Position numbers and translations under genes: made by a program. Shown here piece by piece: positions 2,072-3,601 of a DNA stretch of 36,201 nt. Under the pieces are notes generated by a model, which was given only the letters and a program-made list of their open reading frames with translations, had not been told where the DNA came from and searched no databases. Source of the DNA: Candidatus Azambacteria bacterium (GTDB lineage Bacteria > Patescibacteriota > Minisyncoccia > UBA10092); the NCBI GenBank assembly GCA_030646675.1, contig JAUSKX010000029.1, positions 1 to 36,201 of the forward strand. The letters run 5' to 3'. How positions within the stretch are numbered: position 1 is the stretch's first letter; each line of letters starts with the position of its first letter.

Positions 2072-2725
2072 CTAAAGTCGTCCTTTACAAAAGGGTTCGC
2101 CAAAGGCTATAAATTTATAAAAACCGCTGAGCAACAACAAAATACCATACCATGTTGCTAATAAAAACATGAATATAAACAAGGAAACAAAAAACTCAGG
2201 TTTTAAATATAAATCGATAGATTTTTCTAAACTTACTCTTGCATTTTCAGAAATTTCCTCTTTCGTGTCTTCATAGTATCCCATGAAAGAATACTCAAAT
2301 TTATCTATTGAATTACTTGTTTCAAAATTATTTAAAATCTTTTTATTTTTACCTGAAGTTATTTCTTTATAGTTGCCATTTATATTTATTCTTATTGTTG
2401 TGTCTACATTTCTAGCATCCTCTGTTTTGGCCTTGATGTTATTTTTCAAGTATAAATTATATCTAAATAAATCTCCGGGTAGCTTTAATAATGAGCTTAG
2501 TTCTTTTTCTTTATCTTTTACGGCACTTATGCCGTCAGTAAATTTTTTCATATCATTATAAACTAGAAAGCAAGCATTTTGATCTTGTTTAGCCTTTACT
2601 AAATTAGTGATTTCTAAAGATGTGCGCGTAATATTTGGTATGAAATAAAAGGAAAAATAAAGAGTAAGTGCCAATGGTATTACTAATAAAATTAAGATTC
2701 TTAAAAAAAATTTGTTTATTAACAT
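2072..2725 (-). CDS. Hypothetical membrane protein (N- and C-terminal TM helices)
   Basis: Long AT-rich ORF with two hydrophobic segments; start moved to ATG 2725 because the longer 2818 version runs into the tRNA-linked structured element. Confidence 0.7.
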   Translation of the reverse strand: MLINKFFLRILILLVIPLALTLYFSFYFIPNITRTSLEITNLVKAKQDQNACFLVYNDMKKFTDGISAVKDKEKELSSLLKLPGDLFRYNLYLKNNIKAKTEDARNVDTTIRININGNYKEITSGKNKKILNNFETSNSIDKFEYSFMGYYEDTKEEISENARVSLEKSIDLYLKPEFFVSLFIFMFLLATWYGILLLLSGFYKFIAFGEPFCKGRL

Positions 2726-2744
2726 ATAGTACGAAGTTAAAACT

Positions 2745-2764
2745 TGGCGGAGAGGGCGGGAGTC
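2745..2764 (-). repeat. Duplicated tRNA-Ser 3' end (att-like direct repeat) including CCA
   Basis: Minus strand GACTCCCGCCCTCTCCGCCA versus GACTCCCGCCCACTCCGC at 2927-2944; 17/18 identical, 180 bp apart. Confidence 0.9.
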
Positions 2765-2926
2765 CTTTTCACCCGTCGCGAACCACCACTTCGTGGTTCC
2801 GGTTCGCTCCTCCTTCAAAGCCTGGGTTCCTCACCAAGCCACAACGTGGCTTGTTTCGGATACCCTTCGACTTCCGCCTTCAATATAACACAAAACATTG
2901 CCAAAAAGGCAATGTTTTGTGTTAAA
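2765..2926 (-). other. Highly structured non-coding element between the two tRNA 3'-end copies
   Basis: Perfect 17-bp inverted repeat 2886-2902/2908-2924, nested hairpins 2824-2865 and 2778-2807, inverted copy of the T-arm at 2866-2878. Confidence 0.7.
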
Positions 2927-2927
2927 G

Positions 2928-3012
2928 CGGAGTGGGCGGGAGTCGAACCCGCGATACCTTTCGGTATACCCGCTTTCCAAGCGAGCGCACTAGGCCACTA
3001 TGCGACCTCTCC
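2928..3012 (-). tRNA. tRNA-Ser(GGA)
   Basis: Minus strand GGAGAGGTCGCATAGTGGCCTAGTGCGCTCGCTTGGAAAGCGGGTATACCGAAAGGTATCGCGGGTTCGACTCCCGCCCACTCCG: anticodon loop TT-GGA-AA, long variable arm, GGTTCGA T-loop, G73 discriminator; A5:A68 mismatch and no adjacent encoded CCA. Confidence 0.95.
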
Positions 3013-3034
3013 ATATTATGGGCGAACCCTCCAA

Positions 3035-3601
3035 TTATAAATCCGATGCTTTGACGATTTTATTTTTGCCCGTTTGCTTGGCTTTGTAAAGCGCCTCGTC
3101 GGCTTTCTTAAATAAGCTGTCAAAATCCCCTCCTTCGGTAAAGCTGGCCACGCCTCCGCTAACTGTGACTTTTGTTTTTTCCTCTATTTTCTTTCTGATA
3201 TCGTCGAAAATTTCAAAAGCATGATTCTCGTCGGACCCAACCAATCCCACGATAATTTCTTCTCCTCCCCAGCGCGCCACTATATCGATTCCGCGCACTT
3301 TTTCTTTGATGATTTTACTGGCCTGTTTCAAAATTTCATCCCCCGCCTGATGGCCGTAAGTATCGTTAATTTTCTTAAAATTATCAATATCAAAAATTCC
3401 CAGGCTCAAACTTTTGATAAGAAAATTTTCCCGGCGCGACGGGTTTTCCAAATAACCTTTAACTTCGTCAATAAATTTCGCCGACTCCTCCTTAAAACCA
3501 TGGCGATTGTAAAGAGTTGTTAGTTCGTCCTGATAGGCCAGCCCTTTTAGCCGTGATACCTCTTCTTCCAGTTCTTTAATTCTTTTTTGTTCTTCGGTCA
3601 T
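3035..3601 (-). CDS. GGDEF-domain diguanylate cyclase with short N-terminal coiled coil
   Basis: DELTTLYNR, DIDNFKKINDTYGHQAGD, RWGGEEI, ADEALYKAKQTGKN; RxxD I-site (RGID) five residues before GGEEI. Confidence 0.93.
   Translation of the reverse strand: MTEEQKRIKELEEEVSRLKGLAYQDELTTLYNRHGFKEESAKFIDEVKGYLENPSRRENFLIKSLSLGIFDIDNFKKINDTYGHQAGDEILKQASKIIKEKVRGIDIVARWGGEEIIVGLVGSDENHAFEIFDDIRKKIEEKTKVTVSGGVASFTEGGDFDSLFKKADEALYKAKQTGKNKIVKASDL

Follow-up and report, generated by a model that had tools for sequence, protein, structure and literature searches.

A structured, protein-free insertion behind tRNA and tmRNA genes of Patescibacteriota, a putative RtT-like element targeting the T-loop

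The tRNA-Ser(GGA) gene of a Candidatus Azambacteria bacterium (assembly GCA_030646675.1) is followed by an insertion of 162 bp and a second copy of its own 3' end. We found it in contig JAUSKX010000029.1, whose 36,201 nucleotides were analyzed as one stretch, here called the window. The arrangement is not due to chance, as it recurs in 87 distinct copies retrieved from other genomes and from metagenomes. These copies share the borders of the duplication, a short guide matching the host tRNA and a covarying fold, and have neither an encoded nor a linked protein. We explain them by a protein-free, non-autonomous, RtT-like insertion element that targets the T-loop and encodes a structured RNA, a reading to which we give somewhat better than an even chance. 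Its mobility (present or recent), its non-autonomy and its mode of insertion are the parts that we infer.

On the minus strand, 162 bp of structured, non-coding DNA separate the tRNA (3012..2927) from a second copy of its positions 57–74 plus CCA (2764..2745) (Table 1). A repeat search recovered an 18-nt direct repeat at 2747–2764 and 2927–2944, 17/18 identical and spaced by exactly 180, both copies of which represent tRNA positions 57–74. This agrees with a preliminary description of the same DNA, which had reported a tRNA 3' end duplicated 180 bp apart, with an acceptor mismatch and no CCA in the proximal copy. In that copy A68 (2933) stands opposite A5, a pair marked as non-standard in the Rfam alignment, and TTT follows instead of CA. 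With T68 (2753) and with C75 and A76 (2746 and 2745), the distal copy restores the pairing and encodes CCA, as had also been described. The proximal mismatch is therefore real in the window, but it is untypical: among 56 loci, acceptor pairing with the tRNA 5' half was better for the proximal copy in 15 and equal in 38, and the window was the sole clean case with better pairing of the distal copy.

Table 1 Features of the tRNA-Ser(GGA) locus in the window.
Feature	Position	Strand	Evidence
tRNA-Ser(GGA), functional proximal gene copy	2927..3012	-	ARAGORN, Rfam RF00005 (48 bits)
Landmarks in tRNA-Ser(GGA): T-loop 54–60; G73; C74 (C75 A76 not encoded)	2947..2941; 2928; 2927	-	
Proximal copy of the 18-nt duplication (57–74)	2927..2944	-	Repeat search; same positions duplicated in 58 other loci
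Inserted 162 bp	2765..2926	-	Missing in same-genus G002; BLAST of flanks, sequences side by side
Perfect 17-bp hairpin (arms 2886–2902 / 2908–2924)	2886..2924	-	Inverted repeat
Guide, complementary to host T-loop and 3' T-stem strand	2866..2878	-	Inverted repeat with tRNA
Hairpin P-A (GGGU...ACCC base, GAAA/GUGA internal loop)	2824..2865	-	RNAalifold, pair counts
Long-range helix P-C, 5' strand CUUU	2817..2820	-	Covaries with 2765–2768
Purine strand GAAGGAGGAG, 5' side of core internal loop, Shine-Dalgarno-like	2807..2816	-	Conserved in family
Hairpin P-B (outer stem GCGAACC/GGUUCGC, inner ACCAC/GUGGU)	2778..2807	-	Closing pairs covary
Purine strand GACGGGUGA, 3' side of core internal loop	2769..2777	-	Conserved in family
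Helix P-C, 3' strand AAAG; last 4 nt of insert	2765..2768	-	Final G conserved in family
Distal copy, displaced original tRNA 3' end (57–76, T68 = 2753, with CCA)	2745..2764	-	Identical to G002 tRNA 3' end and flank

The insert was rich in hairpins, and the perfect 17-bp stem and the two nested stems noted earlier (P-A and P-B) were all present. The 17-bp hairpin begins 2 nt past the tRNA end, with an A-rich 5' arm and a U-rich 3' arm. It is terminator-like, yet its T-tail falls short of the strict rule, and no strict terminator was called in the window. The spacer folded with -25.3 kcal/mol (z -6.7). For the window copy, the antisense and sense strands gave z -4.4 and -4.2, respectively, folding energy thus being uninformative about strand preference. 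Between the hairpin and the guide no promoter-like site was found in the window. The insert had been described as lacking a credible open reading frame, and the three frames overlapping it (2668–2925 +, 2744–3040 + and the N-terminal extension of 2072–2818 -) had no Pfam match. A search of window positions 2600–3150 for known RNA families (Rfam, E up to 10) returned only sub-threshold, miRNA-like hairpin matches. No inverted repeat joining the two ends of 2765–2926 was found, and the left ends of family members carried no conserved motif. A DNA transposon of the MITE type was considered and rejected: a duplication is present, but terminal inverted repeats are missing.

Relatives were checked for empty alleles. 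A genome of the same genus (G002) had a tRNA-Ser(GGA) without the insert, identical to that of the window at positions 1–67 and continuing with T68, CCA and the flank AAGTTTT, as in the distal copy of the window; this flank match rests on BLAST of the flanks and side-by-side reading, as MAFFT left the AT-rich downstream flank unresolved. Because the same-genus tRNA is uninterrupted and ends like the distal copy, we regard the distal copy as the original 3' end and the 180 bp as gained. The GGDEF gene upstream is orthologous between the two genomes (82% amino acid identity). The gene downstream of the tRNA differs between them, which means that more than one event may separate the filled from the empty allele, and exact loss through recombination between the 18-nt repeats could mimic a gain. 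In the tRNA-Ser(GGA) loci of relatives, the insert was absent in all six examined.

A covariance model (R1) was built and used to search genomes. It matched window positions 2753–2881 with 101.6 bits. Of 151 class genomes searched with it, 23 contained the element (up to six copies in one genome), as did 7 of the 151 genomes in a phylum sample; the source genome is counted in both. The source genome holds a second copy, behind a tRNA-Asp. A motif pattern had matches in 6 of 401 class genomes, versus 1 for the reversed control; it gave 13 true loci among 120 stretches from genome contigs, and 45 metagenome loci, every one of which was confirmed by the covariance model. Records carrying the family are titled Sungiibacteriota, Harrisonbacteria, Uhrbacteria, Saccharibacteria and “Patescibacteria group”.

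Every copy was preceded by a tRNA or tmRNA gene on its own strand; among the pattern matches, a same-strand tRNA was called just upstream in 45/63. The hosts include tRNAs for Ser, Asp, Gly, Glu, Lys, Asn, Arg, Met, His, Thr, Tyr, Pro, Gln and Leu, and tmRNA in at least five loci. Tandem copies occur. A terminator-like hairpin directly follows the proximal tRNA end in 50 of 60 family spacers. Phage and plasmid collections gave no match to the element (blastn), and in viral contigs the motif pattern gave eight stretches, all chance matches in coding sequence. No description of the family was found by literature search, and it is apparently uncatalogued.

A locus such as that in the window could also be the decayed scar of a formerly larger genomic island, with no present function: island remnants leave direct repeats of tRNA 3' ends, and the rearranged tRNA flank, with its different downstream genes in the source genome and G002, would fit. 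This reading is contradicted by the 87 homologous copies with covarying stems. A shared core of 110 nt, showing compensatory changes, is spread across the phylum, and its borders are fixed and its guide matches the host, a state on which independent decay would not converge. We give a scar hardly any probability.

The borders of the duplication are sharp, at 56|57 and 74|75. The two copies were identical at all 18 positions (57–74) in 34 of 58 distinct loci and at 17 in a further 8; 24 of the 58 fell below full identity. Over the 12 nt past the borders, mean identity dropped to about 4, equal to the control with non-own sequences (3.98). The modal exact run was 18 nt (17/62 loci). Four loci (L228, L193, L192 and L243) had duplications longer than 18 nt, which counts against a fixed length. 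The duplicated stretch includes gene-encoded bases that differ from CCA, indicating that it was copied from DNA or a precursor and not from mature tRNA. In many loci the distal acceptor strand is decayed or interrupted while the proximal copy is intact.

The guide of the family, 10 nt long, is complementary to the T-loop of its own host at positions 54–63. It was complementary at 54–56 in 37/37 loci and perfect at 57–60 in 34/37, compared with 17% of 1306 non-own pairings. In the window, its 10-nt core (2875..2866) matches tRNA positions 63–54, with one C-A mismatch at 61. GGA instead of GAA was found in just two of 99 copies, at the only two hosts seen with C55. Within the element, the guide pairs with positions 57–61 of the distal copy, forming helix P1, which covaries.

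The consensus fold was strongly supported by covariation. Paired cells made up 95.1%, versus 73.0% in shuffles (0 of 500 shuffles reached the observed value), and double changes were seen at 28 of 29 pairs, with slid controls at 52.8% or less. In P-A, both sides changed at 18/18 pairs. The pair types were CG 41 / UA 25 / GC 11 and UA 41 / CG 39 in P-C, and GC 71 / AU 10 and CG 50 / UA 21 for the closing pairs of P-B, whose outer stem is replaced by tandem G-A pairs in other copies. The GAAGGAGGAG strand has model-found variants G(A/G)AGGAG, and in one copy the two purine strands are swapped. An encoded peptide was rejected: in many copies an AUG follows the GGAGG-rich strand by 6–8 nt, but type-1 copies, among them that of the window, have no such AUG, and the reading frames continue into flanking sequence that is unrelated. 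We read this AUG as part of hairpin P-B. On the tRNA-sense strand, G-U pairs outnumbered A-C pairs (41 vs 17). Together with the strong covariation of the fold and the annotation of RtT as an sRNA gene, this makes a small RNA processed from the tRNA transcript, one of the readings offered in the preliminary description, plausible on sequence grounds.

That description had also offered an intervening sequence in the T-loop, whose removal would restore a perfect tRNA. Read-through transcripts would be spliced, by themselves or by an enzyme, from position 56 to the distal 57, the guide acting as an internal guide sequence that aligns the exons 54–56 and 57–63, and the terminal G of the insert resembling an omega-G. 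The guide is indeed complementary to the ligated junction 54–63, including 54–56, which are found only upstream, and covaries at 55; family inserts end in a conserved G; in the window, it takes the distal copy to obtain a perfect acceptor stem with CCA; and the T-loop of tmRNA genes is a known location of group I introns (PMC11915505). However, the decay of the distal acceptor strand in several loci, the tRNA being intact, means that the element is not an intron needed by the tRNA, and in the pairing counts given above it is mostly the proximal copy that pairs at least as well. The supposed intron would hold a full working 3' exon followed by a terminator-like hairpin, and when moving it would bring along positions 57–74 of its old host, which was not seen. 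The Intron_gpI and tmRNA-intron models had no match in the window (E up to 10), and in place of the U that group I introns require before the 5' splice site there is C56, paired with a guide G. Splicing is thus very improbable.

A reading closer to ours is a miniature integrase-dependent element (CIME-like, “attP only”), in which a tyrosine recombinase supplied in trans, by a helper island or phage or as a Xer-like host enzyme, would cross over in the T-loop. In this case attR would correspond to the distal copy, the proximal 57–74 would represent the identity block of the element's own attP, and the core would serve as attachment site, possibly as a folded single strand. Integrases classically use the stretch of tRNA and tmRNA genes between the T-loop and the 3' end, where the insertion also lies; direct repeats, tandem arrays and an element-borne replacement 3' end with a terminator fit as well. 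Compared with the sister tRNA, the distal copy shows no change and the proximal copy has a different base at position 68, as if the proximal 3' part were foreign, and the inverted repeat formed by the guide and the proximal copy could fold in ssDNA as a mimic of the target duplex. A tyrosine recombinase, mostly as one Xer-like copy, was found in 146 of the 151 class genomes.

Against an integrase speaks that the proximal copy perfectly matches its host in more than 14 tRNA species, so that the attP block would need rewriting at each change of host. Identity stops at 74 in most loci whatever the tRNA, and a measured duplication fits this better than attP blocks do. No integrase was present within about 1.2 kb in about 60 loci, and PF00589 was not found in the source genome (92% complete). 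A large insert splitting a copy was seen in 0 of about 100 copies, and the phage, plasmid and viral collections held none. The hairpins, whose pairing is conserved but whose sequence is free, and the tandem G-A motifs are also unlike the duplex arms that bind proteins. We consider an integrase-dependent element, with the crossing over in the T-loop mentioned in the preliminary description, unlikely but a serious rival.

Other enzymes gave no lead. Within about 1.2 kb of about 60 loci there was no recurrent flanking protein family. Reverse transcriptase was found in 11 of 23 element-bearing genomes and in 48 of 128 others, IS110-type transposase (PF01548) in 8 of 151 class genomes (one of the 23 that bear the element), and Cas1 in 0 of 23. 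None of the four profiles (reverse transcriptase, IS110, Cas1 and tyrosine recombinase), searched in apparently the same 151 genomes, was enriched with the element. Contigs of four RNA runs (small-share, from relatives) covered 2927–3013, the tRNA part, alone.

The conserved core implies a conserved partner. This would also suit a small RNA of the tRNA trailer that is kept by the host and is not mobile, spreading by duplication, by unequal crossing-over between tRNA 3' repeats and by homologous exchange. Such an RNA could bind a protein or the ribosome through its GGAGG-rich loop, or modulate tRNA processing by pairing with the T-loop. E. coli RtT (rttR) is annotated as an sRNA gene, and rtT RNA is described as being involved in the processing of the tyrT transcript and as a likely modulator of the stringent response (10.1101/2024.07.17.603846). 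Individual E. coli genomes carry between 1 and 10 RtT copies, a variation that unequal crossing-over would produce. Moreover, an orthologous tRNA-Asp copy in another genus of the same family was about 90% identical by eye (two sequences), and its guide had tracked a change in the T-loop (TTC/GAA vs TCC/GGA), which suggests long retention under selection. Retention by the host agrees poorly, however, with the patchy occurrence (23/151 class genomes, and none of six relatives at the tRNA-Ser locus). More than 14 tRNA species plus tmRNA require a route to new sites, and crossing-over cannot make both a matched guide and a matched duplication at a new tRNA. A purely host-kept RNA is, in our judgment, quite improbable.

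The miniature, non-autonomous, tRNA-targeting element that the preliminary description had listed among its readings is supported by the uninterrupted allele in the same genus, the many tRNAs and the tmRNA used, the fixed borders, the tandem copies and the lack of a protein. In the window, the element went in between positions 56 and 57 of the tRNA or, equivalently, after position 74. The upstream copy of the 18-bp duplication (57–74) leaves the gene complete, and the original 3' end has been shifted 180 bp downstream together with its CCA and flank. Counted from the tRNA, the element consists of a terminator-like hairpin, a guide of 10–13 nt and a core of about 110 nt. The core is predicted to fold together with the displaced T-loop copy: P1, formed by the guide and the distal positions 57–61/63, stacks on P-C, P-A branches off, and the conserved purine-rich internal loop leads to P-B. 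The product would be a structured RNA from the tRNA-sense strand, lying in the tRNA trailer like rtT RNA in E. coli. For targeting, the guide may select the T-loop by pairing with bases on both sides of the 56|57 junction. A trans-acting enzyme that binds the conserved core would then cut 18 bp apart, and repair would yield the duplication.

Several observations count against this explanation. In most loci the terminator-like hairpin separates the tRNA from the core, and in the window no promoter-like site was found between hairpin and guide. No candidate for the enzyme co-occurs among the four profile families. The four loci with longer duplications, the different downstream gene in G002 and the equally good antisense fold of the window copy also weigh against it.

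The family sets the long-unexplained tyrT repeats and rtT RNA of E. coli in a wider frame, as the same plan is seen at many tRNAs and at the tmRNA of bacteria with tiny genomes. Since the borders are sharp, a sister genome has the empty allele and the guide matches the host, mobility and its agent become testable questions. Should the guide truly direct targeting, the element would amount to an insertion module that is programmable and very small. Annotation is affected as well, since such inserts give metagenome-assembled genomes odd 3' ends of tRNA genes, additional tRNA fragments and spurious ORFs.

Several known systems share parts of this plan. Integrative elements that target tRNA and tmRNA genes insert between the T-loop and the 3' end, preserve the gene through direct repeats, displace the original 3' end and accrete in tandem. 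The new family resembles them and cis-mobilizable elements in its direct repeats of the tRNA 3' end, the gene being intact on one side and the original end displaced. It differs in its size of 162 bp, the absence of an integrase nearby, the fixed 18-nt repeat ending at 74 and the covarying, RNA-like fold. The tmRNA gene is used as a site by islands, and its T-loop by group I introns (883 sequences, about 293 bp on average; PMC11915505). With the latter the family shares the T-loop site, a guide that pairs with the exon on both sides of the insertion point, and the terminal G; in contrast to them, it has about 160 nt, a duplicated 3' exon and a dispensable distal exon. Bacterial tRNA genes, too, can contain group I introns.

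The bridge RNA of IS110 and the omega RNA of IS200/605 are likewise structured non-coding parts of about 110–180 nt with target-complementary segments; here, one antisense segment (the guide) and one sense segment (the distal copy) cover the same site. Unlike in those elements, no recombinase or nuclease gene is attached, and there was no Rfam match to their RNA families. To our knowledge, guide-RNA elements of the IS110 and IS200/605 types make no 18-bp duplication. The retroviral primer-binding site is 18 nt long, and elements of the R2/SINE type use target-primed reverse transcription. By analogy, the 18-nt block from T-loop to 3' end, the conserved 3' part and variable 5' end, the LINE-like length of the duplication and the non-autonomous state may recall retroelements. 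The block is, however, in sense orientation with gene-encoded non-CCA bases, and element-bearing genomes show no enrichment of reverse transcriptase.

The tyrT 178-bp repeats and the rtT RNA of E. coli, first described decades ago, come closest, and the parallel with tyrT drawn in the preliminary description holds in architecture. Both are trailers on the tRNA strand, in units ending with a copy of the tRNA 3' end from the T-loop onwards (tRNA-Tyr positions 58–76 in each E. coli unit, 57–74 here). The outer helix of the RtT model (RF00391) joins a 5' segment to the duplicated tRNA-Tyr 3' fragment, like P1 of the new family. Internal hairpins, possible tandem units and the lack of a conserved protein are also shared, and the ...UGAGAA junction of RtT is found in a subset of the family. 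On the other hand, no copy tested reached the RF00391 gathering threshold of 45 bits, the best being L240 (34.3 bits, E 0.0024), with L172 at 21.7 bits. RF00391 had no match in window positions 2600–3150 (E up to 10) or in the source genome (E up to 1), nor had R1 on the E. coli RtT locus (L216; E up to 10). The loop of GAAGGAGGAG and GACGGGUGA and helix P-C are not RtT motifs. RtT was seen at the tRNA-Tyr of E. coli alone (1 of 14 control genomes), whereas tmRNA and over 14 tRNA species host the new family, in which a terminator-like hairpin mostly precedes the core. Homology to RtT is thus not established, lying below detection at model thresholds, while the architecture is shared. Tentatively, and with considerable doubt, we suggest that both may belong to one class of mobile elements: RNA-structured and protein-free, homing to any tRNA or tmRNA T-loop through a 10-nt guide that mutation can reset, keeping the essential gene alive by a measured 18-bp duplication, and relying on a host or helper enzyme, with the E. 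coli RtT/tyrT repeats as a distant branch.

The 3′ end of a tRNA-Ser(GGA) gene is present twice in the window. The two 18-nt copies, covering tRNA positions 57–74, are identical at 17 of 18 positions, and their starts lie exactly 180 bp apart. In the proximal copy, which belongs to the functional gene, A68 (2933) stands opposite A5, a pair marked as non-standard in the Rfam alignment; the distal copy reads T68 and encodes CCA. The DNA in between is rich in hairpins, with two more found between the perfect 17-bp hairpin and the distal copy, and the ORFs overlapping it had no Pfam match. The preliminary description, which had reported the duplication, the acceptor mismatch, the CCA-bearing distal copy and hairpins with no credible ORF, was correct in all details of this locus. 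The neighboring genes (GGDEF, M48 peptidase and N6 DNA methylase) are ordinary.

Positions of the tRNA, its duplicated end and the hairpin in the window, and of the second element copy in the same genome
Feature	Position	Strand	Remarks
tRNA-Ser(GGA)	3012..2927	minus	ARAGORN; Rfam 48 bits
tRNA-Ser(GGA) T-loop	2947..2941	minus	
tRNA-Ser(GGA) acceptor 3′ strand	2935..2929	minus	
tRNA-Ser(GGA) G73; C74	2928; 2927	minus	
Perfect 17-bp hairpin, downstream of tRNA-Ser(GGA)	2924..2886	minus	
Second copy of tRNA positions 57–76	2764..2745	minus	T68 and encoded CCA
Second copy in G000 (L218)	contig C15:2651-2907		behind tRNA-Asp(GTC); R1

The window is contig C8 of its genome, G000 (447,858 bp, 30 contigs, 92% complete). 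We searched 61 relatives by BLAST with window 2700-3060. A genome of the same genus, G002, matched the tRNA side at 96% identity, and its match to the far side (window 2702-2764) overlapped the tRNA match by the repeat's 18 nt. The G002 tRNA equals that of the window through position 67, and then continues with T68, CCA and the flank AAGTTTT as in the distal copy, with the 162 bp missing. The insert was absent from all six tRNA-Ser(GGA) loci read in relatives. Because the tRNA end and flank of G002 match the distal copy, and relatives lack the insert, the distal copy is the original 3′ end; loci without the insert, which the preliminary description had proposed to look for, were found in relatives. 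Between the window and G002, the upstream GGDEF proteins share 82% identity. The downstream ORFs are unrelated (window 2072-2745 vs. 1082-1456 of locus L004) and same-genus synteny ends just past the tRNA, indicating at least one further event in that flank.

Two weak BLAST matches in other families of the class were like inserts, behind tRNA-Glu and tRNA-Asp. A motif pattern derived from them recognized the element in 6 of 401 class genomes, vs. one match with the reversed-pattern control. In genome_contigs it matched at least 120 stretches; among those listed, 13 were true copies and the remaining ones chance matches in coding DNA. A stricter pattern gave 45 metagenome loci, all confirmed by the covariance model R1, and another gave eight viral stretches, none a true copy. 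R1, built from 49 distinct copies and free of the motif pattern's bias, had matches in 23 of 151 genomes of the class, where one genome carried as many as six copies, and in 7 of 151 sampled across the phylum (G000 counted in both). The R1 alignment held 99 matches, 87 of them distinct. Titled element-bearing records were from Candidatus Sungiibacteriota, Harrisonbacteria, Uhrbacteria, Saccharibacteria, a “Patescibacteria group” bacterium and unclassified MAGs. The distribution is patchy. The second G000 copy has a shorter core variant, with a GGAGGAG / CGGGGGA loop.

Tandem units were found at L172, L101/L207, L059 and L183. At L252 (G112:C11:42300-46700), two near-identical copies lie 1.8 kb apart after a tRNA-Asp, with the same tRNA-Asp 3′ fragment after both. 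Between them are a pyrophosphatase-like fragment and the gene for a DUF6159 membrane protein, an arrangement that resembles a segmental duplication, or cargo trapped between tandem units. A 5′-truncated copy in L198 (745-863) lacks the guide and hairpin P-A, yet a tRNA-like 3′ fragment comes after it; no tRNA was found in the 330 nt upstream.

All copies were downstream of a tRNA or tmRNA, on the same strand. Of the 63 pattern matches, 45 had a same-strand tRNA called directly upstream by ARAGORN; the others were contig ends, tandem second units, degenerate loci, an apparent group I intron-bearing tRNA, or tmRNA (confirmed for L186, L210, L225, L226 and L188). The hosts include tRNAs for Ser (GGA, CGA, GCT), Asp, Gly (TCC, CCC), Glu (CTC, TTC), Lys, Asn, Arg, Met, His, Thr, Tyr, Pro, Gln and Leu. 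In L075, a Candidatus Harrisonbacteria record, ARAGORN did not call the host tRNA, which is ~100–200 nt upstream of the element and contains AAGATATAGTCC, typical of a group I intron core; this host is probably an intron-bearing tRNA. The G000 genome, of 0.45 Mb, also has two tmRNA genes with differing tag peptides (C13:2301-2656 and C16:1812-2187), which could reflect a strain mixture, bin contamination or a true second copy.

Reading away from the tRNA, the parts are: (i) the tRNA up to position 74; (ii) a long perfect hairpin whose 5′ arm is A-rich, whose tip is GC and whose 3′ arm is T-rich, found in 50 of the 60 distinct spacers (≤ −8 kcal/mol); (iii) the guide, complementary to the host T-loop; (iv) hairpin P-A; (v) a purine strand conserved as GAAGGAGGAG or, in a shorter form, as G(A/G)AGGAG; (vi) hairpin P-B; (vii) the other conserved purine strand, reading GACGGGUGA or CGG(G/A)(U/G)GA; (viii) four bases, the last being G; and (ix) the distal copy, starting at position 57. 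The window copy is of a minority type, in which the outer P-B stem is Watson-Crick and P-A has a GAAR/RUGA loop. In one copy, L245, the purine strands are exchanged between the 5′ and 3′ sides, which suggests that the two form one pseudo-symmetric non-canonical motif. The element is not protein-coding, and no recurrent protein family was found within ~1.2 kb of the copies.

The borders of the duplication are fixed. Over positions 57–74, proximal and distal copies were identical at 18/18 positions in 34 of 58 distinct loci, at 17/18 in eight and at 16/18 in seven. Over the next 12 nt the mean identity was ~4, vs. 3.98 in non-own control pairs. The exact-match run had its mode at 18 nt (17 of 62 loci), with 19 nt in seven loci and 20 nt in three. 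Clearly longer duplications occurred only in L228, L193, L192 and L243, L192 and L193 being without the hairpin. The 74|75 border did not depend on whether position 74 is a C. In genes encoding CCA, the distal copy has mostly kept C75 A76, indicating that the duplicated block was copied from the gene or precursor and not from mature tRNA. By standard tRNA biology, the proximal tRNA must receive its CCA by enzymatic completion. A constant length across many unrelated tRNAs looks like a target-site duplication; attachment-site identity blocks, evolved independently, are a harder source of such a fixed length. At three independent loci (L046, L083 and L203/L213), the distal copy is broken after ~position 61 by a palindromic CCTGCC...GGCAGG hairpin of 20–40 nt, which may be a second, yet smaller, inserted thing.

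The guide consists of 10 nt ending in GAA, immediately 5′ of P-A, and is the reverse complement of host positions 54–63, with complementarity weakening past position 63. Anchored by position, it was Watson-Crick with its own host at 54–56 in all 37 loci and perfect at the variable loop positions 57–60 in 34; in two of the three exceptions the guide was mis-anchored. Only 17% of the non-own guide/tRNA pairings were perfect at 57–60 (n = 1306). Seven T-loop variants among the 37 hosts were tracked by the guides. GAA was found in 93 of 99 aligned copies, and GGA in two; only in these two does the host T-loop start with TCC rather than TTC (hosts tRNA-Asp of G000 and tRNA-His of G112). In the former, L218, the tRNA-Asp(GTC) has C55, at a normally invariant T-loop position, and the guide carries the matching GGA. 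The ortholog of L218 in G006, from another genus of the same family and ~90% identical by eye, has TTC and GAA. A minority of copies have the complement of 54–58 replaced by GAGAA or GAGGA, like the E. coli RtT RNA. Positions 54–56 are present only in the intact tRNA and not 5′ of the distal copy, and therefore the guide matches the uninterrupted site across 56|57.

Four helices were supported by RNAalifold (n = 49) and pair counts (n = 87 distinct copies): P1, in which the guide pairs with distal positions 57–61; P-A; the closing pairs of P-B; and P-C, a long-range helix between CUYY before the first purine strand and RRAG, the last four bases of the insert. The conserved fold thus takes in the displaced T-loop copy. 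The P-C pair types were CG 41 / UA 25 / GC 11 and UA 41 / CG 39. In an alignment fitted to the model, and so favoring structure, 95.1% of the cells were paired, vs. 73.0% in column shuffles (0/500 reaching the observed value) and a maximum of 52.8% in slid controls; a first alignment, based on MAFFT, gave the same helices. Two-sided changes were found in 28 of 29 pairs. On the tRNA-sense strand there were 41 G-U vs. 17 A-C, indicating that this is the strand in which the fold is read, whether as RNA or as single-stranded DNA. For the window copy the folding energy is −62.7 kcal/mol (z −4.2), but its antisense strand folds equally well. The covariance search thus recovered homologs with covarying stems, and the family, shared anatomy, fixed borders, host-matched guide and conserved fold rule out a random scar, the outcome considered in the preliminary description had such homologs and a discrete transcript both been missing.

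Another option raised there was an intervening sequence whose removal restores the tRNA. The window is the only clean case, among 56 loci, of the distal copy pairing better with the tRNA 5′ half; the proximal copy pairs better in 15 and equally well in 38. Several distal copies have decayed past position 63–70 or are interrupted by the CCTGCC...GGCAGG hairpin, a terminator-like hairpin usually stands between tRNA and core, and no Rfam intron family matched the element. An intron needed by the tRNA was rejected on these grounds.

The element is a protein-free insertion with an 18-bp duplication at 56|57 and 74|75 and a host-matched guide over 56|57, and we infer that it is a non-autonomous mobile element. 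We hold this overall explanation, the best we have, with moderate confidence; our confidence is much lower for any specific insertion chemistry. The guide, as RNA or single-stranded DNA, could pick any tRNA-like gene with a matching T-loop, and since the T-loop is common to many tRNAs of a genome, one guide would have a range of hosts. A trans-acting enzyme bound to the purine-rich core would cut the strands 18 bp apart, and repair would duplicate 57–74. The intact target would then remain in the proximal gene and not in the distal copy, which agrees with tandem arrays growing from the tRNA side. No conserved sequence marks the left end of the element, which is located at the tRNA 3′ processing region, and the 3′ part is conserved. 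This would fit an RNA intermediate from the tRNA trailer, copied from its 3′ end; in a target-primed scheme, the distal 57–74 tail would anneal to the nicked target. Against such a step, reverse transcriptase was not enriched (11/23 element-bearing genomes vs. 48/128 others), and the six-copy genome had none. IS110 transposase and Cas1 were found in 1/23 and 0/23 element-bearing genomes, neither linked to the element. A single Xer-like tyrosine recombinase is near-universal (146/151 class genomes) and is a possible enzyme for the element. Its domain, PF00589, was not found in G000, where it may just be unassembled given the 92% completeness.

No family for the element was found in Rfam 15, and no description of it in our literature searches. 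E. coli already offers a known, though unexplained, case of a repeat in a tRNA trailer that carries a tRNA 3′ copy. What appears to be new is the host breadth, the constancy of the borders, the finding of an uninterrupted allele in a sister genome, the covariation of guide and host with position 55 included, helix P-C and the conserved purine loop. E. coli K-12 has four units of RF00391, the Rfam model of RtT RNA, behind tyrT and tyrV. All four terminate with tRNA-Tyr positions 58–76, bearing out the preliminary description, by which the tyrT repeats duplicate the tRNA 3′ end, and all contain an exact complement of positions 59–68; in the RF00391 consensus structure this segment and the tRNA-Tyr 3′ copy form the outer helix. 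RtT units were found in 4738 of 5426 complete E. coli genomes, at 1–10 places per genome, and the same query gave none in 688. Eighteen RtT places were on plasmids (ecoli_genomes collection). One of the repeat units is rttR (Bosl and Kersten 1991, as cited by PMC3318445), and for the tyrT-rttR region “mobilome” coverage was raised under stress, its mode of action being called unknown (10.1101/2024.07.17.603846). The logic is the same in both, a 5′ complement pairing with the duplicated tRNA 3′ end, but sequence models do not bridge them: RF00391 had no match in the window or G000, and R1 none in the E. coli locus. With RF00391, one GAGAA-subclass member scored 34.3 bits (E 0.0024), and the main basis of that alignment is the guide together with the UGAGAA junction and the 3′ end. 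We therefore consider the element family and RtT to be analogous, and possibly remotely related.
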